Origin: Alphaproteobacteria bacterium
GTDB taxonomy: Bacteria; Pseudomonadota; Alphaproteobacteria; JAJTHO01; CANGYM01
Direction: 5' to 3'
NCBI GenBank assembly: GCA_947458235.1
Contig: CANGYP010000001.1
Span: 1,248-65,247 of the forward strand
DNA: 64,000 nucleotides
This document shows, piece after piece, positions 8,144 through 61,385 of the stretch. Within the stretch, counting starts at the first letter, position 1. Each line of letters begins with the position of its first letter. A program made the position numbers and the translations under genes. The notes beneath the pieces were generated by a model that was given only the letters and a program-made list of their open reading frames with translations, had not been told where the DNA came from and searched no databases.

Positions 8144-10021
8144 TTACGCCTTCTGGGCCATTTGTTCTTCTGTGGGGGCCCGTTGAGCTTTTGGCAGGCT
8201 GATATAAAACACAGTCCCCTTGCTGCTGGATTCAAACCAAATACGCCCCCCATGCATTTCCACAATTTTTTTGGCTATCGGCAGGCCAATCCCAGCATGC
8301 TCTGTCTGTGCATTCAGGGATTCAAAGAGGGAAAAAATATGGTCTGTATAAATTTTTTCAATGCCCGATCCATTATCCTGCACTTTAATAACCCACTCTT
8401 GTTCGCGCTCTTGACAGGATAATCCCACAATGGGGGGGATGCTGGCATTATGTTCAATCCCATTTTTTATGAGATGATACAAGGCCCTCTTCAGAAATCC
8501 TTCATGGCATGGCATATCAGGAAACAGGCCGAATGTTTTAATGCGGGCACCGCGTTTTTTCACCAAGGGCATCAGGTCTTTCAAAGCGGCCTGAAGAATA
8601 CTCTGCAACGCATGTTCGGGAAAGGGGGGGGATATTTGAATTTGATTATATTCCGTCAGACCTTGCAAACGCTTGAGGCTCAGAGTGGTCCATCGTTTGA
8701 CTTCGGCCAATTTTTTCAGGGCAGACTCTCGCCTCTCTGCATCTTCCAAGGCCACCGTGCTCTGCAAAATGGCCCGCAAAGGATCCGAAAAAATGTGGGT
8801 TAAGCTATGGGAGAGTGTTTGGTATTGTTGTTGCATCCGAAAAAGGACGTCATGATCCTTTTTTTTATCAAAATTCCGCAGATGCTCGGTTAGAAAAATC
8901 GCCTTTTCCCGTGTGTAGTAGACCACCAAGCGCTTCATTTCATCGATCCAATCGGTTTCTTCTAGGTTAACGATGGCATTCAGTCCCGCCTGCTGCCATT
9001 TTTCGGTGTCATCTAACAAGGCACCACCTCTTAACCCGACCAGATAGGTTGCATTAGGATTGCGACTATCGGTTTTTAGATATTCATTCACCACATGATA
9101 CCCACTTTTAGGATAAAATTTGAGGCCGATGAAGGCCATGTTGTACTGTCCCTTCAAAACCATCTGCAGGGCCTCTTCACTGTTGCAGGCGATATCAGGG
9201 GTTATTAAAAAAGCCTTTTCCAAAAGATCAAGAATGCGTTTCATGGCCCCATCATCACCTGTCGCCACCAGAACGCGCCATTTGGATACCAAATCTGGAA
9301 GACGCAAACGTTTGTCAATCAACGATCCTTTTGTTTCGGATGCCTCATAAAAGGCCGTGTTCATGTTGTCTTCTGGGTTCATAAACACGTTTTGTGCATC
9401 ATTGTCTGGATGAAAGCGGCGCAGATGCTCTGGTTCATCCAAGGGGCTCTTGATCGGCTTTAAATTTAACGCTTCAAGACGATCGTCATACAGCTTGCGT
9501 CGTGTTAGACCCGCAGAATTTCCGGGGTTTAAGGCCATGTATTTTTTGACATAATCGGCCAAAGATTTCGTGCTGAAGGGCTTTGTGATATACCCAGAGG
9601 CCCCCTGTCGCATGGCGGTGTTAAAATCGGCACTTATTTGGGAGGATGTAATAATCACAACATAACTTTTGGGATCAAAGTCTTTGATTTTTTTTAATAG
9701 GGCTAGACCAGATACTTTACCTGGAAATGCTAAATCCAAGAAAATAATATCGGGTGCCCCTTGGACAAACAAAGACCATCCCGTCTCTGGGTCATTGGCG
9801 AAGCTCTTTTCACACTCTGGCAAAGCCTGAGAGACAATGGAACGATAGCGCAGATCATCTTCAACAATGAGAATCCGCAGTTTGTCCGTATCTTGAAAGT
9901 TTTTCCCCATGATGTTCCCTATCACACCGTCCAAAAAACAGTGTAACAAGGTTTGATTGACGAGCGGTAAAGACTCATAATGCCCCATACATGGGGGTCT
10001 CACGTCCGCCTTCCTTAACAC
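8144..10021 (-). CDS. Hybrid sensor histidine kinase with two N-terminal receiver-like domains (REC plus REC-like, then HisKA-HATPase); cytoplasmic
   Basis: REC1 is RILIVEDD...IIFLDLAFPG...GYITKPF. The second receiver-like block is VLVATGDD. A divergent H-box LSHSLTHIFSDPLRAI is followed by ATPase N-box HLIKNGIEHN, G1 DNGSGI and G2 GIGLPIAKK. GC is lower than the backbone. Confidence 0.8.
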   Translation of the reverse strand: MLRKADVRPPCMGHYESLPLVNQTLLHCFLDGVIGNIMGKNFQDTDKLRILIVEDDLRYRSIVSQALPECEKSFANDPETGWSLFVQGAPDIIFLDLAFPGKVSGLALLKKIKDFDPKSYVVIITSSQISADFNTAMRQGASGYITKPFSTKSLADYVKKYMALNPGNSAGLTRRKLYDDRLEALNLKPIKSPLDEPEHLRRFHPDNDAQNVFMNPEDNMNTAFYEASETKGSLIDKRLRLPDLVSKWRVLVATGDDGAMKRILDLLEKAFLITPDIACNSEEALQMVLKGQYNMAFIGLKFYPKSGYHVVNEYLKTDSRNPNATYLVGLRGGALLDDTEKWQQAGLNAIVNLEETDWIDEMKRLVVYYTREKAIFLTEHLRNFDKKKDHDVLFRMQQQYQTLSHSLTHIFSDPLRAILQSTVALEDAERRESALKKLAEVKRWTTLSLKRLQGLTEYNQIQISPPFPEHALQSILQAALKDLMPLVKKRGARIKTFGLFPDMPCHEGFLKRALYHLIKNGIEHNASIPPIVGLSCQEREQEWVIKVQDNGSGIEKIYTDHIFSLFESLNAQTEHAGIGLPIAKKIVEMHGGRIWFESSSKGTVFYISLPKAQRAPTEEQMAQKA

Positions 10022-50878: not shown

Positions 50879-52849
50879 TTATCCCCTGCGCCATCCCCAC
50901 AGCAACAAAGCCCCCATCAGGGCAGCGAGGACGGGGGGCGTCCATGGCCATACTTCGCCTTGGCCCATGGTGATGGCCGAGGGACGATCAAAGATCAAGG
51001 TTTGGGATGATAAACGCTCTGACAATCCCTGATCAAAGGTGATGTTGAGGGGGGCGCTGGGATCATCACGATATCGACCGCTGTTGTGTTTGGCCAACAG
51101 GGCGCCCGAGGGGGGAACGGGGGTCCACTCCGCCGGCGGTCCCATGTCAAAGGGGATAGGAATCAACGTTTGTTGAACCCGAACGGCCCACAGACCCGCA
51201 CGGTTTAGGGGGGTGCGATACACCCCATCCCCCTCTGGGGTCCAAGGTTGCCATAATCCCTCTGGACGATAAAGGGATACGGTACCCTTCAGCGTTCCTC
51301 TGGGGGTGCAGGTCAATGTGGCCTTATCTTGTTGGCAGGTCATGGGGGGGGCCTCTAAATCGGGCTCCCGCAATAACCAGTGCATCAAACGGCGCATCAT
51401 GGGGTTAAAGGGGGGTGGTTCTTCCCCTTGAGGGCGGCGCCATGTCCATACATCATCCGTGGCCACCCATGCCATGCGTCCATGTTGCGGGGTGTCGGGC
51501 CAGATACTCAACACAGGGATTTTTTCGGGGGTTTCCAGCAGGGCCTCTGCCTCTGCTGGTAATATCGCTGGCAGGTATCCGCGCAGTTGTGGAAAGGTCT
51601 TGCCCAAAAACGGCTGGGTGATGGGGTGATCCTGCCCCAAACGGGGGGTGATGGGGGCATCCTGATAGCCTTGGGGGGATAGGGTTAAACGTAACATATC
51701 CTGCAAAGCTACCAGCAAACTGTCGTTTTTTGCGCCTTCGGGCCCCGTCATGATCAGAAACGCGCCGCCTTTTTGAATAAAAGCCCGCAGCCCCTGCAGG
51801 TGAATGGGCTGTAACAATCCCAAATTGGCGTAACGATCCATGACAATGACATCAAAATCATGGATGCGGTTTAAAAACAGCTCATCCACAGGAAAGGGTA
51901 TCAGGGCCATTTCATCTGGCGGCGTGAAATCCACGCTGTCCATGCGGCGCAAAATAGAAAAATGGACCAGATCCATGTTGGGGTCTTGTTTAAACAAACT
52001 CCGAAAGGCCCGTGTGGAGGGATGCGAGGATCCCGAAACCATCATCACCCGCCACCGATCCCGAAACACCGTCAGGGTGAAAATGGCGGCATTGTTTTGC
52101 AGTGTCGCTTCCTTATCCAGCGGCGGCGTAGCCAAAAGATAGGGGGTGCGCCCAGGGCGATCGGTATTGAGGGGGATTTGGGTTTTTTCCCCATTGCGTA
52201 CCCGATACGTAACCTGCTGATCACCGTGGTACAGATTCAGGGGAATCTCGGACCCCTCGGGCTGTGTGGTGTCCCGCACCGTAACGGACAGGGCAAAGGG
52301 CTTGCCCACCAATTGATAGGATGAGGATTTCTCCAAAACCACCGAACGATCTGGCGCATTGCGAAAGGCGCTGAGGACGTGGATGGGTACCGTTGCCCGA
52401 AAGGTCGATAAATCCGCTTTGGCATCATGCCACAGGGTGTCACTGATAATCACCACACCGGCCAAACGATCTTGCGGCACGCTTTGCAGGGCGGCTTTTA
52501 GGGGGGGCAGGACCCTCGTGCCTTGATCCGTCTGGCTCAAGGGAAAGGATTGCAACGTGGCTTTCTCCCCCACGGCATTTTTCAGGGTTTTCAGCCACAG
52601 GGCTTGGGCCTGTGTATCCGCGCTGGCCGTTTGATCCTGCAACACCACAATGGTTTTGGGGGACGCTTTGGGGGCAGGTTTTAACAGGGTCACCTGAGAA
52701 AGCATGGCCACCAACACAGCCACCGCCCCCAAGCGGGCCCAGCTTTTTCGGCCCCACAGCACCACCAGTGCGCTGAGCATCACCACCACCACACTCAGGG
52801 CCACCGAGCCCTCCTCCCATGACAGGGTATATCCCCCCAGATCAAGCAT
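50879..52849 (-). CDS. Large membrane-anchored protein with N-terminal double-TM domain and C-terminal TM (TIGR02226/DUF4159-like), function unknown
   Basis: Two hydrophobic helices at the N-terminus (VALSVVVVMLSALVVLW and LGAVAVLVAMLSQVTLL), a roughly 550-aa soluble region and a C-terminal helix ALMGALLLWGW. Overlaps the response-regulator gene stop by a few nt. Confidence 0.55.
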   Translation of the reverse strand: MLDLGGYTLSWEEGSVALSVVVVMLSALVVLWGRKSWARLGAVAVLVAMLSQVTLLKPAPKASPKTIVVLQDQTASADTQAQALWLKTLKNAVGEKATLQSFPLSQTDQGTRVLPPLKAALQSVPQDRLAGVVIISDTLWHDAKADLSTFRATVPIHVLSAFRNAPDRSVVLEKSSSYQLVGKPFALSVTVRDTTQPEGSEIPLNLYHGDQQVTYRVRNGEKTQIPLNTDRPGRTPYLLATPPLDKEATLQNNAAIFTLTVFRDRWRVMMVSGSSHPSTRAFRSLFKQDPNMDLVHFSILRRMDSVDFTPPDEMALIPFPVDELFLNRIHDFDVIVMDRYANLGLLQPIHLQGLRAFIQKGGAFLIMTGPEGAKNDSLLVALQDMLRLTLSPQGYQDAPITPRLGQDHPITQPFLGKTFPQLRGYLPAILPAEAEALLETPEKIPVLSIWPDTPQHGRMAWVATDDVWTWRRPQGEEPPPFNPMMRRLMHWLLREPDLEAPPMTCQQDKATLTCTPRGTLKGTVSLYRPEGLWQPWTPEGDGVYRTPLNRAGLWAVRVQQTLIPIPFDMGPPAEWTPVPPSGALLAKHNSGRYRDDPSAPLNITFDQGLSERLSSQTLIFDRPSAITMGQGEVWPWTPPVLAALMGALLLWGWRRG

Positions 52850-53549
52850 GATCGGCCACCAGACGATATCCCTGATGACGCACAGTTTGCAGGTATTGTG
52901 GCGTTTTGGGATGAGGTTCAATTTTTTGGCGCAAACGATTCAGATGAACATCTATGGTACGGGATAGGCTGGTTTCCTCTAACCCCAAGGCCGTTTGCAG
53001 GGCCAGACGGGACACGGGTTGCCCGCCCGCCCGCACCAAAACATCCATCAAGGTTTTTTCTGCGGGCGTTAAGGCAATGGGCCCCCCATCCATCCCCAGC
53101 AGGGTTTGCATGGTGCTTTGATAGGTTAACCGTCCCAAACGCAGAGCAGGGGAGGGGGCTTCCTCCAGACTATTGCCCGCCCGCTTTAAAATATTTTGAA
53201 TGCGCAACAACAGCTCCTCAGGCACAAAGGGCTTGGTCAAATAATCATCGGCCCCCAACGACAATCCCGCAATGCGATCGGCAGATTCCCCCTTGGCCGT
53301 TAACATCAACACTGGCAGCATATTGTCTTGTCCCCGAAGCTGCGCCAGAAAATCCCGCCCCGTTTGATAGGGCATCATGTCATCCAAAATGATCAAGTGA
53401 CAACGATATTCAGGGGCCTTCAGGATCGCATCGGCCTCCGTCGGGTGGGCGGCGGTGCTGACGGTATAGCCATGCTGGCGCAAAAACCGCTGCAACAACA
53501 GGCGGATGCGCTGATCATCATCCACAATCAACAGGTGAAAAGACGACAT
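52842..53549 (-). CDS. OmpR-family two-component response regulator (REC plus winged helix)
   Basis: HLLIVDDDQRIRLLLQRFL...LIILDDMMP...LMLTAKGE...DDYLTKPF, then a C-terminal wHTH YLQTVRHQGYRL. Confidence 0.85.
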   Translation of the reverse strand: MSSFHLLIVDDDQRIRLLLQRFLRQHGYTVSTAAHPTEADAILKAPEYRCHLIILDDMMPYQTGRDFLAQLRGQDNMLPVLMLTAKGESADRIAGLSLGADDYLTKPFVPEELLLRIQNILKRAGNSLEEAPSPALRLGRLTYQSTMQTLLGMDGGPIALTPAEKTLMDVLVRAGGQPVSRLALQTALGLEETSLSRTIDVHLNRLRQKIEPHPKTPQYLQTVRHQGYRLVADHA

Positions 53550-53609
53550 TGTGCGAAAGATTAAACGTTTCTTAAAAGTTCAGGTCTATTCTGAAACAAT
53601 ACCCCCGCG

Positions 53610-54095
53610 TTGGGGATACAGATTTCAAAAAACAGCATAGAAAAAAACCGCGAAAGGTGCCAGATGAAAGATCGGTTAAAACTTGCAATCCTTGAAGCGG
53701 AAACCTTAGGTGATGCGCCGTTCGTTCAAACTCTGCGTTTGATTGCCACAGTGCTTGAGGATCAGGGCTTTGCCACGGAAGATATCGAAAAAAACAGCTA
53801 CAGCGTGATTCGCCAAATCATGGCTTATCACCAAGAGCGTCTGGCCATTTTTCAGGCCAGTGGATCCCACAAAAAAGCCCAAGCTGAAAAATCTCTGATT
53901 CAAAAATTGGAAAGCCTGCTACCCAAAACGTACTCTGAAGACAGTTTGCACGCTATGATTCACGAAAAAATCACCGCATGCGGTGCCAGATCGATTCGGG
54001 ATTTAAAAACCGTCATGGCTCTGCTCCGTCAGGATAGCCGTGGCGAGATCAATTACGAACATGCCAAAGGTATCGCCATTAGTGTGTTGCGATAG
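53610..54095 (+). CDS. GatB/YqeY domain protein
   Basis: C-terminal KITACGARSIRDLKTVMALLRQDSRGEINYEHAKGIAISVL resembles the YqeY tail. 161 aa. Confidence 0.6.
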   Translation: MGIQISKNSIEKNRERCQMKDRLKLAILEAETLGDAPFVQTLRLIATVLEDQGFATEDIEKNSYSVIRQIMAYHQERLAIFQASGSHKKAQAEKSLIQKLESLLPKTYSEDSLHAMIHEKITACGARSIRDLKTVMALLRQDSRGEINYEHAKGIAISVLR

Positions 54096-54160
54096 CATGG
54101 TGTTTTGGATGGAGGATCCCCGAAAGATACCCTCAAACACCTTGTGTGTGTGTCACGCCC

Positions 54161-54691
54161 TCACAAAAACGATAACCCTTGATGCAAACCCGTAATCCAT
54201 ACATCCGCCGCTGTGTGCTCTGGCCTTTCGGGGCACAGTAACAGTTTTGTGCCGATGCCTGCGGCGTGGGCGGCCTGCATGTCAGTTTCTCGGTCCCCAA
54301 TCATCACAGAGGCCTCTGGTGAAAGGGCGTATTTTTCTATACCTTTTAGGATCATGCCTGGATGGGGCTTTCGGTCAAAGGATTCTTTTTTGTACACGCC
54401 CAATCCATGCTCTGGATGATCGGGACAAAAATAGGTTTCGTGCAACACAATCCCCCTGTCCTGAAACTGCTGCTGCATCCAGTGGGTTAAATGATGAAAT
54501 TGATCTTCGGTATAATACCCCCGTCCGATACCCGCTTGGTTGGTGACAACAATTAAAAAATACCCCAAGGTCTGGGCGGTCTGGCACAGATCAAAAATAC
54601 CATCAACAAACACAATCTGATCAGGGCGATGGGCGTAATTGATCTCTTGGTTAATCACCCCGTCACGATCCAAAAACAACGCCCGATTCAT
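54161..54691 (-). CDS. gmhB: D-glycero-D-manno-heptose 1,7-bisphosphate phosphatase / HAD-IIIA histidinol-phosphatase-like
   Basis: ALFLDRDGVIN with later conserved HAD motifs and a Cys-rich zinc loop. 176 aa. Confidence 0.7.
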   Translation of the reverse strand: MNRALFLDRDGVINQEINYAHRPDQIVFVDGIFDLCQTAQTLGYFLIVVTNQAGIGRGYYTEDQFHHLTHWMQQQFQDRGIVLHETYFCPDHPEHGLGVYKKESFDRKPHPGMILKGIEKYALSPEASVMIGDRETDMQAAHAAGIGTKLLLCPERPEHTAADVWITGLHQGLSFL

Positions 54692-54704
54692 GTCCCGCCG
54701 TATC

Positions 54705-55910
54705 CTAAGTGGCCAAGGCCATGGTATAGGATCCTATGGTCTTACAATTGACGCAAACGGGTTGCCACGTGGGGCTTTGATCCTGACAGTGGTCACATGT
54801 CCAAGCATGGCGCAGGGTCTCCCCCTCGGGGGGCTGCAAACGCATAACCTCCGCTTCATGATAAGCCAGTTTTTCCACAAACCCCAAACTCTCAAAAACA
54901 GAGGCCATCAGGCGATGATAGAGGGGTGAATTCTCCTTGATCTCCATGGATTTAATGGTTTTTGTACGCTCTTTTTCGGGCAGGGATCGGATGATTTGCA
55001 TCAGCAGAGTTTGCACAAACAAAAATCCCGCCCCTTGGGGCAGGATTTTTTTCATCAAAGACAAAGCCTCCCGCCCATCGGTGTCGCACAAAGATCCTGC
55101 GTACAGGGCCCGCATGGCCGCATCATTGCGGTCGCGTTGATAGGCTTTTTTGAAGGCCTCTTGGGCCTGTTGCAGAGCCTCTTGATCCTGTTTTTGACTA
55201 TCATTATAGACCTGCCAAGCCCGTTTACCCTCTGCTGCGGCGATGGCTTTTTCCATGCGCAGGGTTTCCTTGGCATCAAAAATCCGGCGATGGGTGCATA
55301 GCAACTGATTAGCCCCCTCTATATCCCCCATCACCAAAGCCCGCGCCATCAGGGCCCGCACAGCCCATGGTTCCTGACGCTGCTCAACACTCAGGGTGCT
55401 TAGCCACTGAAAGGGATCCTTCACCTGATTGTCGGGCAAGTGCGTTAACTCCCGAATCCCCAAAGCACTCAGCTTCGGATCAAACATCAAAGCTTGATAG
55501 GCTTGACGTGCCCCTTCCATATCGCCCTTCATTTCACATACGCGCCCCTGCAAATAGGGGAAGAGGGGATTGTCCCGCAAAGATTTTTTCAAAACGGCCA
55601 AATGCCGGTCTGCGCCCTTTTTGTCCTGCAATACCACCGCCTGCCAACACAAACCCAAGGTATCGAGAGATTCCTGAGAACGCTGCAATTGTCGTCGCAA
55701 ACTGCGATGTTGGGACCACGCCATCAAAGACGCAATGCTGCTGAGTAAGCCATGGGCTAAAAAAAATACAACCAACACAAACGTCAACGCCACAGACAGG
55801 GACATACTGATTTCGTATCCAGCAATCAGGATCGTCACCGTATCAGCAGAAAGAAACTGAATGCCCGCCACCAAAACAACCAACAAAACAAGGGTCATGG
55901 CCGTTTTCAT
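54705..55910 (-). CDS. HemY_N-domain TPR protein (heme-biosynthesis-associated, hemY-like)
   Basis: N-terminal TM pair, an LLSSIASLMAWSQHR-type HemY_N region and TPR-like repeats. A C-terminal CDHC...CVNC Cys motif is present. Confidence 0.65.
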   Translation of the reverse strand: MKTAMTLVLLVVLVAGIQFLSADTVTILIAGYEISMSLSVALTFVLVVFFLAHGLLSSIASLMAWSQHRSLRRQLQRSQESLDTLGLCWQAVVLQDKKGADRHLAVLKKSLRDNPLFPYLQGRVCEMKGDMEGARQAYQALMFDPKLSALGIRELTHLPDNQVKDPFQWLSTLSVEQRQEPWAVRALMARALVMGDIEGANQLLCTHRRIFDAKETLRMEKAIAAAEGKRAWQVYNDSQKQDQEALQQAQEAFKKAYQRDRNDAAMRALYAGSLCDTDGREALSLMKKILPQGAGFLFVQTLLMQIIRSLPEKERTKTIKSMEIKENSPLYHRLMASVFESLGFVEKLAYHEAEVMRLQPPEGETLRHAWTCDHCQDQSPTWQPVCVNCKTIGSYTMALAT

Positions 55911-56917
55911 GGGGCGATCCCCTCCGAGTTTTTAACAGGATTTTCGGGGGATAGGGGCGCCATGGGCGATGCTCCTGCCTGCGTCATGTCCTGAATCATT
56001 TGACGTGTCATATCCATACGGGCGGAACGCAGCCACACATAACACCTCAGCCATGTTTCAAAATCTTGTTTCCACGTTTTCCAGCGGGCCTCCTCTGCAA
56101 ACAATAAGCGGGCATCCAAGGTTGCCACAAACCCCGCCGCTTCATCCAAACGTCCCTTGCGTACGGCGGGCAAAATGGCATTTTGCCACGTGTCATAGGC
56201 GTCATTATAAAGACCCACCACCTCAGGACCACCCCCAGCATCCTCGGGACTCAATGAGCCAGGGGCCCGAACCGTCACAAAATGACCGAGCACGGATGAC
56301 CAAAACGACGACGGGGCAGGGGCAGGGGACTCCGCCGCCCCCACAATGGGCTCGGGCAAAACCACCAATGCCTCGGCCTGCTGCACAAAATGGGCAAAGG
56401 AGGATCGCAAAATCAGAAGATCGTCTGTCTTTTTTTCAGGAAACAGATTGTGCATCAATACCAATAACGCATCCACATCCCGCGAGGTCAAGGGTTGAGA
56501 TGCGAAAAACAACAGCAAATCATCCACCAAATCTTTGGCCAACATCAAATCGGCCCCCGATGATGACTTGGGGAATGACTGATCCTGAAGCGATGGCGTC
56601 TTTTGAGAAAAATCCAAAGCTCCCAACAAAGATAAAGGGACAGGGGAGGCGGGCTCCAACCCTTGGGGCACACGATGGGAAAGCTCGGTGAGCAAACCTT
56701 CGATGCGGTCCAATTGCATCTGAACAGGGGCGAAATTCACAGACGGCGCAGAAGCAGGGGGCAAAGGCTCCTTCACAAGAAAAAGATCCCCATAATGTCC
56801 CGCCGCCAACCCCGCCGCAAAAATCAACAGCCCCCCCATCATCAGTACCAAAAACCGTCCCCAAAAGGGATATTTAGATTGTTTTTGGGACATTCTAACG
56901 GCATCAGGAAGGGTCAT
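55907..56917 (-). CDS. Membrane-anchored protein in the hemD-hemY neighbourhood; candidate alphaproteobacterial Mic60/mitofilin homolog (COG4223-like)
   Basis: Single N-terminal TM FWGRFLVLMMGGLLIFAAGLAAG, a low-complexity middle and a conserved-looking C-terminal domain. It lies in the characteristic hemD-X-hemY position. The ORF could start at 56995. Confidence 0.5.
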   Translation of the reverse strand: MTLPDAVRMSQKQSKYPFWGRFLVLMMGGLLIFAAGLAAGHYGDLFLVKEPLPPASAPSVNFAPVQMQLDRIEGLLTELSHRVPQGLEPASPVPLSLLGALDFSQKTPSLQDQSFPKSSSGADLMLAKDLVDDLLLFFASQPLTSRDVDALLVLMHNLFPEKKTDDLLILRSSFAHFVQQAEALVVLPEPIVGAAESPAPAPSSFWSSVLGHFVTVRAPGSLSPEDAGGGPEVVGLYNDAYDTWQNAILPAVRKGRLDEAAGFVATLDARLLFAEEARWKTWKQDFETWLRCYVWLRSARMDMTRQMIQDMTQAGASPMAPLSPENPVKNSEGIAP

Positions 56918-56948
56918 AGCGTGGGCACCAAATTCAGGAATTCCTTCA

Positions 56949-57716
56949 CTAACTCCCAGATGGAGAGCGTTTGTAATAAGATTCAATGCACGCAATCAGA
57001 GACGTGGTTGTAGGCTCTGACGGCATAGTGATAGAGGATTGTGGCATAATTTTGGACCCCTGCGCAATATCCTTGCTCAGGCAAAACAAATGCCCCTTAC
57101 GATACAGAGGGGCCAACCCGTGATAAAAAATCAAATCATCCCAATGCCCCATGCCCCGTGATGAAAGAGCAACATAACCCATTAAAGACTTAGAGGAATA
57201 AGACAATTCCTGCATCACGGCCCGAATGGACGAAGGAATTTCTGGGATCAACGATGTTTTATAAACGATTTGTTCGCTATACGCCAACCCTAACTGAGCG
57301 ATATCCCTCCCTAAGTTTGGGTTTTTAACCACATCCCCCCTGTAATAATGGATGGCCTTGATGTCTTTTCGATTGTTGTCTGCCAGATGATGCAAAAAAG
57401 CCTCAATGGTCAAAAAACGCTCCATAGCTCCCTGAAAGCCTGCCGCACAAAGCGCGTTTTGGGTTTCCTCGCCGATGACAAAACAATGGGCCTTTTCTAT
57501 AAAACGCACCAGAGACGACACAGCACGAACCCCCGCACGGCTGGAAAACAACAAAGCACTGTAGGGAGAGGGAGGATTCGCGGGAAAAAGCAGTTGATAC
57601 TGAACTACAGGAACGTAATAGGGACGAAACCATTTTTTTTCCAAAAGACGATCCAGTGTTCCGTAATCACGGTGCTCCCTGAGAATAATAAGCTTTTGAT
57701 AGTCTTCCGTCACCAT
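56949..57716 (-). CDS. hemD: Uroporphyrinogen-III synthase
   Basis: HemD-like two-lobe pattern (ALLFSSRAGVRAV) and position upstream of the hemY-like cluster. 255 aa. Confidence 0.55.
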   Translation of the reverse strand: MVTEDYQKLIILREHRDYGTLDRLLEKKWFRPYYVPVVQYQLLFPANPPSPYSALLFSSRAGVRAVSSLVRFIEKAHCFVIGEETQNALCAAGFQGAMERFLTIEAFLHHLADNNRKDIKAIHYYRGDVVKNPNLGRDIAQLGLAYSEQIVYKTSLIPEIPSSIRAVMQELSYSSKSLMGYVALSSRGMGHWDDLIFYHGLAPLYRKGHLFCLSKDIAQGSKIMPQSSITMPSEPTTTSLIACIESYYKRSPSGS

Positions 57717-57799
57717 GGAAATTTCTGGCCTTGATTTCTGTTTTAAAGACGGCTAAACCATGTCCCATCTCTCAATCATAAACGAATGGATGATGAATC

Positions 57800-58039
57800 A
57801 TGGATATTTTTGGACGCGTCAAGAAAATTGTTGTTGATCACTTGGGGGTCGACGAAAGCAAGGTGGTCGCTGGTGCCAGTTTCATGGATGACCTTGGTGC
57901 CGACAGCCTCGATACCGTTGAGTTGGTCATGGCCTTCGAAGAAGAATTCGGCGTTGAAATTCCTGATGATGCGGCAGAAAAAATCCAAACCGTTCAGGAT
58001 GCCATTTCTTTTATTGAGCAAAATGCCGCTGCTGCTTAG
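57800..58039 (+). CDS. acpP: Acyl carrier protein
   Basis: [22 protein letters not shown] with the phosphopantetheine Ser. Confidence 0.95.
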
Positions 58040-58106
58040 AGATTTCTCTTGGCAGTGGGATGTGATGCAAAACACTCACCCTATGTGGGTTACCTAGGGC
58101 ATTTTT

Positions 58107-59375
58107 ATGGCACCCTCTTTTCATTTGCGCCGCGTTGTTGTGACGGGAATGGGCCTTGTCTCTCCTTTTGGTGCTGGCATTGAGAAAACGTGGGGACCTT
58201 TGATCGAGGGACACTCGGCTTTGCGCCCTATTGCTGGATTCCCAACGGAAGATCTTCCCTGCCGCATTGCTGGACAGTTGATGCATCATCCTGATTTGTT
58301 TGATCCTGTGGCCTATATCACAGAAAAAGATCGCCGCCGTATGGACGACTTTATTCTGTATGCCCTCATTGCTGCGGATGAAGCCATTGCGGATGCGGGC
58401 TGGGTGCCAAAAACTGATCACGATGCCAACCAAACGGGCGTGATGATTGGCTCTGGCATTGGTGGCCTGCCAGAGATTGAACGCTCCTCCCTGTTGCTTG
58501 CAGAGCGCGGGCCCCGTAGGGTCAGTCCCTTTTTTATCCCCTCTAGCCTGATCAATCTGGCCAGTGGGCAAATTTCTATCAAACATGGTTTCCGTGGTCC
58601 CAACCATGCGGTGGTGACGGCCTGTGCTTCAGGCAGTCATGCCATCGGGGACGCCGCGCGATTGATTCAAATGGGGGATGCGGATGTCATGGTCGCAGGG
58701 GGTGCTGAGGCCGCCATTTGTCGGATTGGTATGGCTGGATTTGCGGCTGCCAAAGCCCTGTCTACGGGTTATAATGATACCCCTGAAAAAGCGTCTCGCC
58801 CTTGGGATCGGGGACGCGATGGTTTTGTGATGGGTGAAGGTGCAGGGATTTTGGTTTTAGAAGAGCTGGACCACGCCCGTGCCCGCGGCGCGAAAATCTA
58901 TGCTGAATTAACGGGCTATGGACTTTCTGGCGATGCCCACCACATCACGGCTCCTGCCGAGGATGGGGACGGTGCTTATCGTTGTATGCGTATGGCCTTG
59001 AAACGGGCGGCTCTGCCTGTGGATGCCATCGATTATATCAATGCACATGGCACATCCACCCCTGCGGGGGATGTGATTGAGGTACGTGCGGTCAAAAAGC
59101 TTTTTGGGGATCATGCCTACAAGCTGGCCATGTCCTCCACAAAATCCGCCATCGGTCACTTGTTGGGGGCGGCGGGGGCGGCAGAGGCCGTCTTTTCCAT
59201 TTTGGCGTTAAACCATAATGTTATGCCTCCGACCCTAAACCTTGACGATCCCGATGAAGAATGTGATCTTAACTTTGTGCCTCATCATGCACAGGAAAAG
59301 GTTTTATATCACGTTCTTTCCAACTCCTTTGGCTTTGGGGGCACCAATGCTTCCCTTGTGTTTTCAAAACTATAA
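58107..59375 (+). CDS. fabF: 3-oxoacyl-[acyl-carrier-protein] synthase II
   Basis: RVVVTGMGLVSP, active-site ACASGSHAIG and HGTSTPAGD. 422 aa. Confidence 0.9.
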   Translation: MAPSFHLRRVVVTGMGLVSPFGAGIEKTWGPLIEGHSALRPIAGFPTEDLPCRIAGQLMHHPDLFDPVAYITEKDRRRMDDFILYALIAADEAIADAGWVPKTDHDANQTGVMIGSGIGGLPEIERSSLLLAERGPRRVSPFFIPSSLINLASGQISIKHGFRGPNHAVVTACASGSHAIGDAARLIQMGDADVMVAGGAEAAICRIGMAGFAAAKALSTGYNDTPEKASRPWDRGRDGFVMGEGAGILVLEELDHARARGAKIYAELTGYGLSGDAHHITAPAEDGDGAYRCMRMALKRAALPVDAIDYINAHGTSTPAGDVIEVRAVKKLFGDHAYKLAMSSTKSAIGHLLGAAGAAEAVFSILALNHNVMPPTLNLDDPDEECDLNFVPHHAQEKVLYHVLSNSFGFGGTNASLVFSKL

Positions 59376-59396
59376 ATCATCCTTGGGGGCCTTCCC

Positions 59397-59870
59397 ATGA
59401 TTCATCCCATTGTTCAACGCCTTGAATCTCTGGGCATTGTTCTGCCTGAACCTGCTGCCGTTGCGGGGAATTATGTGCCTGTTGTTGTGGCGGGGCCCCT
59501 CGTGTCTGTATCGGGGCAACTCCCCCTGCGTGAGGATGGGCAGTTGATGCAAGGATGCTTAGGCCACACCGTCTCTGAACAAGAGGGTTACGAAGCCGCC
59601 CGCCTGTGCGGCCTGCATGTTTTGGGTCAGGTCAGAAGTGCCCTGCACGGTCACTGGTCCCGTCTTTTGCGGTGTGTTCAGCTGTCTGTGTTTCTGAATG
59701 CAACGCCAGATTTTATCCATCATCCTGCTGTGGCCAACGGTGCCTCGGATCTGATGGTTCAGGTCTTAGGGCCAGAGGTTGGTCGTCATGCCCGAGCGGC
59801 CATCGGCTGCTCCTCTTTACCCAAAGGGGCCTGTGTTGAGGTCGGCGCCACGTTTTGGATCGAGACCTAA
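59397..59870 (+). CDS. RidA/YjgF-family (Rid) protein
   Basis: 157 aa of RidA-like size with a GNYVPVVVAG...VSGQLP pattern. Confidence 0.55.
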   Translation: MIHPIVQRLESLGIVLPEPAAVAGNYVPVVVAGPLVSVSGQLPLREDGQLMQGCLGHTVSEQEGYEAARLCGLHVLGQVRSALHGHWSRLLRCVQLSVFLNATPDFIHHPAVANGASDLMVQVLGPEVGRHARAAIGCSSLPKGACVEVGATFWIET

Positions 59871-59873
59871 AGT

Positions 59874-60245
59874 ATGGCCACCCCCGATCAAAAGCGTCTT
59901 TTGGAATTATGCCATGATATGATGGGGGGCTTGGTTCAAGACCACTTGCCAGATTTAACCATCCGCCAATTCAACCTGCTTTTGGCCGTTTACTTGAAAC
60001 CTGGACCCCATACGGTTCGCAGTTTATCAACCCATCTCAAGATCGCCAAACCTGCCATCACCCGCGCCATTGATAAGCTGCAGGATCTGGGTTTTGTCAA
60101 ACGCAAAGCGGACCCCGAAGATGGGCGAAGTGTCCTGATCCAACGCACCATTAACGGTTCCGTGTATTTGGCCGATATGGGGGAAAAATTTTCCCTAGCC
60201 GCCGAACACGTCTTTGGGGGACAAGAGGGGGCGGGTCTTTTTTAA
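59874..60245 (+). CDS. MarR-family transcriptional regulator
   Basis: wHTH LTIRQFNLLLAVYLKPGPHTVRSLSTHLKIAKPAITRAIDKLQDLGFVKR. Confidence 0.7.
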   Translation: MATPDQKRLLELCHDMMGGLVQDHLPDLTIRQFNLLLAVYLKPGPHTVRSLSTHLKIAKPAITRAIDKLQDLGFVKRKADPEDGRSVLIQRTINGSVYLADMGEKFSLAAEHVFGGQEGAGLF

Positions 60246-61385
60246 ATGGACGCATCTATGATTCTCGTTTTCAATGCAGGCTCTTCCAGTATTAAAGCCA
60301 GTCTTTACCAGAAAAACAATCTGGAGGCCCCTAAAATCAGCCTTCAGGTTGATACGATCACAACGCAACCTGTCTTCAAAGCACGCGGTGACAATGTCCC
60401 TCCTCCCCCTTCTTTAGGGGTGGGCCATGATTCGGTTTTATCGGGTCTTCTGCCATGGTTTTTTGAGGCTTGGCCCATCCAAGCCATCGGCCATCGTGTG
60501 GTTCACGGGGGCATTCATTTTGCGGATCCTGTACGCATCACCCCCCCTATTTTGGATGACTTAGAGACTTTGATCCCTCTGGCCCCCTTGCACCAACCCC
60601 ATAACCTTTTTCCCCTACGGTGGATTCAACAACGCTTCCCTCAAAAACCGCAAGTTGCCTGTTTTGATACGGCTTTTCATCGGACCCAAACGCCTTTAGC
60701 CACATGGTTTGCGCTGCCGCGTCATTATCATGATGAAGGTATACAGCGTTACGGATTTCATGGGTTATCCTATCAGTATATTGCAGAACAGTTGCCTAGC
60801 CTCACAAAAGCCCCTCGGGTCATTGTGGCCCATTTGGGGAACGGGGCCAGTTTGTGCGGCCTCAAAGAGGGTAAAAGTTACGATACCACCATGGGCTTCA
60901 GTGCTTTGGATGGCCTGATGATGGGCACGCGTTCTGGCAGTCTGGATGCGGGCGTCATCTTGCATTTGCTGCATCACACAAGTCCAGAGCGCATTCAAGA
61001 GATTCTGTATAAAGAATCTGGCCTCTTGGGGGTATCAGGCATCAGTCACGATATGCGGACGCTTTTAGAGAGCCCCCATCCCCACGCCGCAGAGGCTGTC
61101 AATTTGTATGTGTATCGTATCATTCGGGAAATAGGGGCCTTAACGGCAACGTTAGGGGGATGTGATGCCCTCGTCTTCACCGCAGGTATAGGGGAAAATG
61201 CCCCCATCATTCGCCAAAGGGTTTGTGAAGGGCTATCTTTTTCTGGCCTCAAGCTTGATCAAGAGGCCAATCTGCAAAACAAGATTTGCCTTCACCATCC
61301 AGAAAGCCCAGTAGAGGTCTATTGCATACCCACCCACGAAGAACGCGTCATTGTCGAGGCCACCATCGTGCATGGCCTTTCTTGA
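60246..61385 (+). CDS. ackA: Acetate/propionate kinase family protein
   Basis: ILVFNAGSSSIKASLY N-terminus, VVHGG and conserved ASKHP-like blocks. 379 aa. Confidence 0.8.
   Translation: MDASMILVFNAGSSSIKASLYQKNNLEAPKISLQVDTITTQPVFKARGDNVPPPPSLGVGHDSVLSGLLPWFFEAWPIQAIGHRVVHGGIHFADPVRITPPILDDLETLIPLAPLHQPHNLFPLRWIQQRFPQKPQVACFDTAFHRTQTPLATWFALPRHYHDEGIQRYGFHGLSYQYIAEQLPSLTKAPRVIVAHLGNGASLCGLKEGKSYDTTMGFSALDGLMMGTRSGSLDAGVILHLLHHTSPERIQEILYKESGLLGVSGISHDMRTLLESPHPHAAEAVNLYVYRIIREIGALTATLGGCDALVFTAGIGENAPIIRQRVCEGLSFSGLKLDQEANLQNKICLHHPESPVEVYCIPTHEERVIVEATIVHGLS

Follow-up and report, generated by a model that had tools for sequence, protein, structure and literature searches.

Mic60 is the one subunit of MICOS (the system that organizes mitochondrial contact sites and cristae) that has been traced to Alphaproteobacteria, and its distribution, surveyed with the mitofilin profile, has served as an argument for a descent of cristae from the intracytoplasmic membranes of bacteria. 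In Mic60 loci hemC usually lies directly upstream of hemD, with exceptions, and fusions of HemD to Mic60 are known in Alphaproteobacteria. HemX of Gamma- and Betaproteobacteria (PF04375; E. coli b3803) occupies the same slot, in the order hemD–X–hemY of a hemC–hemD–hemX–hemY operon, and to our knowledge has been described as a protein without a mitofilin domain. Rhodobacter Mic60 is known for membrane remodelling, homo-oligomerization and interaction with BamA; BamA is recovered in pull-downs of Mic60 and of its neighbour Orf52, both of which influence the size of intracytoplasmic membranes, and the canonical arrangement is given as hemD–Mic60–Orf52 (bioRxiv 10.1101/2022.06.14.496148). Here we analyse a 64,000-nucleotide stretch (the window) of contig CANGYP010000001.1 from the alphaproteobacterial assembly GCA_947458235.1, in which the initial annotation had pointed to a hemD / membrane protein / hemY-like cluster and had proposed the middle gene as a candidate alphaproteobacterial Mic60. 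The three-gene cluster is present as claimed, as co-oriented minus-strand open reading frames (ORFs):

56949..57716, minus strand: hemD, uroporphyrinogen-III synthase, 255 aa, first gene of the cluster (Pfam HEM4).
55907..56917, minus strand: middle gene, 336 aa from its ATG, encoding a divergent membrane protein that probably belongs to the HemX/Mic60 superfamily.
54705..55910, minus strand: orf52-like ('hemY-like') gene, 401 aa, with HemY_N, two transmembrane (TM) segments, a tetratricopeptide repeat (TPR)-like region and a Cys motif.
54741..54803, minus strand: the Cys motif W-T-C-D-H-C-x10-C-V-N-C-K, residues 370–390 of the Orf52-like protein.

Within the HemX/Mic60 superfamily, the middle gene is probably the positional ortholog of alphaproteobacterial Mic60, inherited vertically and evolving fast. 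That the C-terminus of its product carries a true mitofilin domain or fold is not demonstrated, because the PF09731 test fails, a long coiled coil is lacking and the mitofilin-specific evidence amounts to one short helix at P~1e-3.

The position of the gene is the firmest part of this assignment. Canonical loci were fetched from two metagenomic contigs (L015 and L017), Sinorhizobium meliloti (L019) and a Rhizobium (L020), and share the order gpsA–tsaD, divergent from hemC–hemD–Mic60 (COG4223/PF09731)–Orf52 (HemY_N), so that Mic60 sits between hemD and orf52 in all four. In the window, HemD matches Pfam HEM4 (PF02602) with 35.6 bits (gathering score 27.5), and the HemD family aligns with alphaproteobacterial HemD in hhalign (probability 97.6%, E = 3e-12) while giving no signal against E. 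coli HemD. The Orf52-like protein, with two N-terminal TM segments by hydropathy, reaches 28.0 bits for HemY_N, just under the gathering score of 31, and has weak TPR matches in Pfam; by hhalign its family aligns with canonical alphaproteobacterial Orf52 over 250 columns (probability 96.4%, E = 1.2e-9), as opposed to a probability of 5.8% for E. coli HemY. The Cys-rich C-terminal motif that had been noted in this protein is indeed there, and W-T-C-D-H-C...W-Q-P-V-C-V-N-C-K is conserved among family members; the same motif ('W.C..C......WQPVC.NCK/FDTL') recurs in the canonical Orf52 of L015 and L017, and is found neither in Rhizobiaceae Orf52 nor in E. coli HemY. Since both flanks are of alphaproteobacterial type and the Cys motif is common to canonical Orf52, the slot is the Mic60 slot, and the placement first proposed holds.

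Some features of the Orf52-like protein recall other proteins. The arrangement CxxC-x10-CxxC resembles the rubredoxin-type end of LapB/YciM, a Joint Genome Institute (JGI) record names one cluster member YciM, and there is a weak Pfam LapA_dom match. LapB/YciM was nevertheless set aside as an identity for the gene because HemY_N, the homology to Orf52 and the motif common to canonical Orf52 fit better. An Arg cluster, 'HRSLRRQLQR', stands right after the second TM helix (residues ~60–80), which by the positive-inside rule would place the TPR bulk in the cytoplasm; a periplasmic location, opposite to this, has been suggested for Orf52 in the literature.

The middle protein itself divides into five parts:

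56792..56863, minus strand: TM anchor, residues ~19–42, ending 'FAAGLAAGHYG' (hydropathy, AlphaFold helix).
56561..56731, minus strand: short conserved helix 'QLDRIEGLLTELSHR' (63–80) and Pro/Ser-rich linker (81–119) (invariant columns, AlphaFold).
56318..56560, minus strand: conserved helical region, residues 120–200, 'DLVDDLLFFFASQPLTSRDVDAL...LILRSS..HFV.QAE' (invariant columns).
56252..56317, minus strand: motif 'SSFWSSVLGHFVTVRAPGS', residues 201–222, equivalent to HemX 'SWQNFMDNFITIRR'.
55970..56251, minus strand: C-terminal helices, residues 223–316, including 'ILPAVRKGRLDEAAGFVATLD' and 'RWKTWKQDFETWLRCY' (AlphaFold).

This anatomy bears out the earlier description of a single N-terminal TM segment, a disordered middle and a C-terminal domain. 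Hydropathy exceeds 1.6 at residues ~19–42 alone, where AlphaFold places a helix (17–42); three K/R residues precede the segment and a net acidic stretch follows it, which by the positive-inside rule suggests an N-in, C-out orientation. In two orthologs (L011 and L004) the end of the TM helix aligns with the rhizobial Mic60 TM 'AGAGVLQYAGYLP'. The family alignment has invariant columns from Q68 to R82, corresponding to an AlphaFold helix at 63–80, after which the predicted local distance difference test score (pLDDT) falls below 50 through a linker (residues ~81–120) that is 50% P+S+Q+G; helix and linker together occupy the place of the long coiled coil of Mic60. Residues 120–316 form a conserved helical C-terminal region of ~200 residues, with dense invariant columns and four modelled helices in 120–200, and helices at 231–253, 257–266 and 276–315 (pLDDT 80–91) in 223–316. 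The full-length AlphaFold model is poor (pLDDT 46.8), and a model of residues 118–318 is usable (pLDDT 68.5, predicted TM-score (pTM) 0.63). The motif at 201–222 corresponds both to its HemX equivalent and to the helix and V-R motif that open the mitofilin domain, in the lipid-binding-site-1 region.

Profile–profile comparison with hhalign provides the second line of evidence. The Mic60 set was fished with six invented alphaproteobacterial-type mitofilin C-termini, which Pfam scores as Mitofilin with 52 bits; this bait led to 120 real database proteins, most with a precomputed PF09731 assignment and some named 'COG4223' or 'mitofilin family'. The Mic60 alignment (A4) contained the real database proteins alone, the bait being excluded, and two full-length rhizobial Mic60 sequences were added later. 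The HemX set (n = 7) consisted of E. coli HemX and sequences from Klebsiella, Kosakonia, Proteus, Aeromonas, Neisseria and Ralstonia, the six non-E. coli members being taken from PLSDB chromosomes filed as plasmids. Several PLSDB 'plasmids' of 2 to 5.4 Mb are evidently whole chromosomes (E. coli, Klebsiella, Proteus, Aeromonas, Neisseria, Sinorhizobium, Shinella) and supplied both HemX and Mic60 sequences. Against Mic60, the middle family scored 28.5–30.5 (29.6 with the rhizobial sequences added; P = 1.3e-3 to 4.8e-3, probability 7–18%), compared with 9.4–13.5 for nine neighbour-gene families, a maximum of 17.0 in 300 column shuffles and 9.4 for the reversed target. Against HemX it scored 35.2 (P = 6.7e-4, probability 27%), the same nulls giving 9.0–14.7, a shuffle maximum of 22.3 and 22.4 for the reversed target.

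The alignment with Mic60 comprises two pairings: (i) 'SFW..LGHFVTVRxPG' with 'l..fl..v.vRpvg.eGd', and (ii) past a 14-residue insertion, 'LPAlRkGrLdeAa...L' with 'RAE.aL.aGDLa.Al.el..L'. The strongest anchor of all is that of 'SFW..L.HFVTVR' with HemX 'SWQNFMDNFITIRR'; on its own, the motif piece (201–222) scores 33.5 against HemX (P = 2.7e-6, probability 88%), with 15.2 as the shuffle maximum and 8.9 for the reversed query. The same piece scores 14.8 against Mic60 (P = 0.043) at the homologous position, which is also where the HemX motif itself matches Mic60 (19.7, P = 0.004). The downstream piece (223–316) scores 14.3 against HemX (P = 0.075; 'FETWLRCY' resembling 'VSTWVRAYY') and 21.2 against the mitofilin C-terminus (P = 1.2e-3), over 22 columns of the 'GDL' helix. 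For the upstream piece (120–200) hhalign found no significant match to HemX or Mic60, and a likeness by eye to HemX ('LTSRDVDAL' versus 'LWSDQDVTTA') and to Mic60 ('L..LR..F') was dropped for want of hhalign support. In all, three weak similarities to HemX and/or Mic60 follow one another in the correct order: the TM end, the helix with its V-R motif, and the helix resembling 'GDL'. Of these, the motif is nearer to HemX and the helix after it nearer to mitofilin.

The family is narrow and changes quickly. A word-indexed search with the middle protein returned 16 relatives, each with at least 53% identity, and an exhaustive profile search of 1.84 billion representative proteins returned two 50%-identity clusters, both belonging to the family itself; the second is an AT-rich form (P0017), 36% identical and encoded in the most distant relative, L012. 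One outside match (P0020), a long repetitive protein, was judged spurious. The genomes that carry the family are freshwater metagenome-assembled genomes (MAGs) labelled 'Alphaproteobacteria bacterium'. Across the same MAGs, identity is 97–100% for acyl carrier protein (ACP; acpP is 100% identical in most related MAGs), ~93% for FabF, ~89% for the Orf52-like protein, ~85% for GmhB, ~66% for HemD and ~63% for the middle protein, which is therefore fast-evolving relative to its HemY-like and FabF neighbours. Divergence between positions 52000..60300 of the window and L001–L012 is very uneven, with HemD and the middle protein forming the fast-evolving pair.

Several results weigh against identifying the middle protein with Mic60. 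At full length it matches nothing in Pfam or NCBIfam with E ≤ 1, PF09731 and PF04375 included, and when the C-terminal domains of eight family members were scanned separately, nothing relevant in Pfam reached E ≤ 10, so the mitofilin-domain search suggested in the initial annotation came back negative. A HMMER profile of the family run against the 1.84e9 representatives retrieved no Mic60 or HemX, and a hidden Markov model (HMM) built from real alphaproteobacterial Mic60 scores the window protein at 0.5 bits. Whole-family HHalign probabilities are low (7–33%); the mitofilin-specific match is one 22-column helix whose score of 21.2 is only a little above the best shuffle (18.0); and the Mic60 set is biased to Rhodobacterales-like sequences because of the invented bait. 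The AlphaFold model and composition give no long coiled coil, the 18-residue helix being the only candidate, and the motif helix of the window protein is hydrophobic and not clearly amphipathic, with a hydrophobic moment of 0.34 versus 0.6–0.7 in HemX and Mic60, and 0.54–0.69 when the L012 ortholog is counted with them. In addition, a divergent acpP–fabF pair lies upstream of hemD and an adjacent hemC is absent. In a Foldseek search of the 118–318 model against the PDB nothing fell below E = 1 and a MIC60 helical-bundle entry ranked 35 (E = 6); the fold searches recovered generic helical bundles alone and did not single out Mic60. A PDB-sequence profile search yielded a single TetR match on 'YNDAYD.W', dismissed as chance. 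In favour of a relationship, when the Mic60 HMM was run with HMMER over all 813 ORFs of the family contigs, the top three matches were middle-gene orthologs (best E = 0.017), for which the Gly-rich TM end ('AGIGVARYGGIFP' versus 'GAGVLQYAGYLP') is the main basis; the HemX HMM, built from seven sequences, had the L012 ortholog as its top match over the same ORFs (E = 0.1). The proposal of a Mic60 homolog is thus supported in part: slot and architecture agree with it, profile–profile comparison gives a weak signal (29.6–30.5), the PF09731 test fails and the fold searches do not point to Mic60 in particular.

A HemX-type protein had been named at the outset as the finding that would count against Mic60, and this outcome is partly realised because the profile signal to HemX is about as strong as that to Mic60: the motif is HemX-type (P = 2.7e-6), whereas the match of the following helix is mitofilin-like (P = 1.2e-3). 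That the protein is of HemX type and not Mic60, having retained an ancestral HemX-like state or reverted towards one, nonetheless seems unlikely. The motif is the best-supported single similarity of the whole analysis, and its W-to-R spacing is identical to that of HemX (the L012 ortholog reads 'SRWKSFLDNFITIKK', E. coli 'KSWQNFMDNFITIRR'); the whole-family score to HemX (35.2) is slightly above that to Mic60 (~30), 'FETWLRCY' is reminiscent of HemX 'VSTWVRAYY', and the L012 ortholog heads the HemX HMM ranking. Yet PF04375 is not matched, the region after the motif is matched less well by HemX than by mitofilin (P = 0.075 versus 1.2e-3), the upstream helical region carries no HemX signal, and the HemX alignment holds just seven sequences. 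HemX has moreover been reported as Gammaproteobacteria-restricted (bioRxiv 10.1101/2022.06.14.496148), although we also found it in beta genomes among the PLSDB records. The hemD and orf52 flanks are of alpha type and not gamma type, which makes transfer of a hemDXY block unlikely; a recent transfer from gamma- or betaproteobacteria was rejected, both flanks being alpha-type by hhalign.

It is very unlikely, in our estimation, that an unrelated lineage-specific membrane protein has displaced Mic60 (non-orthologous displacement) and that the matches reflect generic helix and TM features. Such a protein would fit the lack of matches in curated families, the confinement to two 50%-identity clusters among 1.84e9 representatives, HH probabilities below 35% and the non-specific fold searches, and the TPR-containing HemY-like control also touches the mitofilin 'GDL' helix region, at 13.4. 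Set against this are three independent weak matches (TM end, V-R motif and GDL helix) that stand in the right order and at homologous places, whole-family comparisons that far outscore every shuffle and the nine real-family controls, the top ranking of middle-gene orthologs for both HMMs, and a 15-residue motif with 8 identities to E. coli HemX at the same genomic position. Improbable too, though of interest for the history of the superfamily, is an intermediate between HemX and Mic60, preserved or re-evolved, in which a membrane-binding motif of HemX type would be joined to a mitofilin-like terminal helix, beside an alpha-type Orf52. The most economical reading is the positional ortholog of Mic60, which is adopted below.

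The surroundings of the cluster are as follows:

54161..54691, minus strand: gmhB, HAD-IIIA heptose bisphosphate phosphatase (TIGR00213, 173 bits, cut-off 149.6).
57717..57799: divergent spacer of 83 bp between hemD (minus strand) and acpP (plus strand).
57800..58039, plus strand: acpP, 79 aa, with the ACP motif 'DSLDTVELV'.
58107..59375, plus strand: fabF, following acpP (FabF domains).

The open frame of the middle gene extends over 55907..56995 (362 aa from a TTG), and its first ATG, at 56917, gives the 336-aa model that is recorded in public gene calls and has the same length in all relatives. This ATG lies 31 bp from the end of hemD, and the stop codon of the middle gene overlaps the start of the orf52-like gene by 4 bp (ATGA); gmhB follows in the same orientation, 13 bp downstream. 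The region beyond 57716, previously taken to be intergenic, is instead the 83-bp spacer followed by acpP and fabF, and the search for hemC upstream of hemD, recommended at the same time, led to this acpP–fabF pair. Three HemC sequence motifs sought in all frames of the window occurred nowhere in a gene-like context. In L015, L017, L019 and L020 it is tsaD–gpsA that hold the divergent position taken by acpP–fabF in the window. The order acpP–fabF, divergent from hemD–X–hemY_N, recurs in every related contig examined, with Pfam PP-binding at the acpP position; the hemD–X–hemY_N arrangement is consequently conserved, and chance is ruled out. Downstream, gmhB is present in most related contigs (L001–L003, L014) and not in L012, where a ParE-toxin / TraY-like pair (9382..9859) takes its place after orf52, so that the conserved unit is hemD–X–orf52 without gmhB. 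Promoter and terminator scans gave results at chance level, and no tRNA, tmRNA or Rfam family (gathering threshold) was found across the 64-kb window.

If the middle protein is indeed the local counterpart of Mic60, it may act as a single-pass scaffold anchored in the inner membrane, with its N-terminus predicted to be cytoplasmic and its bulk periplasmic according to the positive-inside rule. The motif helix would then mediate membrane binding, and the terminal helical bundle could serve in oligomerization or in contacts within the envelope. The 4-bp overlap suggests co-translation with Orf52, and linkage to hemD might reflect coordination with cytochrome and heme supply. By analogy, the pair may play a role akin to that of Rhodobacter Mic60 and Orf52.

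That Alphaproteobacteria have Mic60, and that its gene lies between hemD and orf52, is well established; the novelty is a conserved occupant of this slot that escapes all standard profiles and combines HemX-like with mitofilin-like elements. Because the slot is occupied and conserved yet its occupant is unseen by Pfam, NCBIfam and exhaustive HMMER searches, maps of Mic60 presence and absence may undercount. The mixture of HemX-like and mitofilin-like features also bears on the relationship between HemX and Mic60. Were the intermediate scenario true, the mitofilin domain would have arisen within a HemX-like C-terminus and not by addition onto one, and cryptic homologs would exist in some of the alphaproteobacteria that profile surveys count as 'Mic60-absent'. 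The practical consequence is modest: the middle protein is a candidate for structural comparison and complementation, and not a new kind of system.

Compared with alphaproteobacterial Mic60 (Cereibacter sphaeroides, Sinorhizobium meliloti L019), the middle gene shares the slot between hemD and orf52, the orientation and the tight packing, and its partner is a clear homolog of Orf52, the neighbour of Mic60, with the same Cys motif. Both proteins have a single N-terminal TM anchor and a bulk predicted to be periplasmic, and in both a hydrophobic helix with a V-R motif is followed, at similar distances (48 versus 49 residues without the 14-residue insertion), by a 'G-D/R-L-x-x-A' helix and by a last helix that contains Trp. 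Unlike Mic60, the middle protein fails PF09731 and every HMMER test, has an 18-residue helix and Pro/Ser linker instead of a long coiled coil, carries 14 inserted residues, 'PEVVGLYNDAYDTW', that separate the V-R motif from the GDL-like helix, and changes much faster than its neighbours (63% identity versus 89% for Orf52); its locus likewise differs in having acpP–fabF upstream, without hemC or tsaD. A precedent is given by the 'cryptic' mitofilin proteins of Euglenozoa, reported as Mic60-type proteins so divergent that standard profiles miss the mitofilin domain (Mol Biol Evol 2025, PMC12631773). These are eukaryotic MICOS subunits reported to contain mitofilin, whereas for the middle protein the assignment is unproven.

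The comparison with HemX is closest in short elements. The middle protein and HemX have in common a single TM segment ending 'AAG.G.YG', the near-identical and equally spaced W-x2-F-[LM]-x-[NH]-F-[IV]-T-[IV]-[RK] (P = 2.7e-6) and, close to the C-terminus, a 'T-W-[VL]-R-x-Y' element, and the middle family matches the conserved periplasmic HemX motif W-x2-F-[LM]-D-x-F-I-T-I-R-R. In contrast to HemX, there is no PF04375 match and no significant match outside the motif, and the host is alphaproteobacterial with flanks of alpha type; HemX for its part possesses a long coiled coil, and its domain upstream of the motif is longer. Gene fusions also touch on the two families. Ralstonia pseudosolanacearum (L024, 118..2103) encodes a 662-aa fusion of HemD and HemX, and the alphaproteobacterial contig L017 (4332..5609) a 425-aa HemD with a TM-containing C-terminal extension, which is a HemD–Mic60-type fusion that a frameshift in the assembly has split. 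The occurrence of HemD–HemX and HemD–Mic60 fusions in parallel supports the equivalence of HemX and Mic60.

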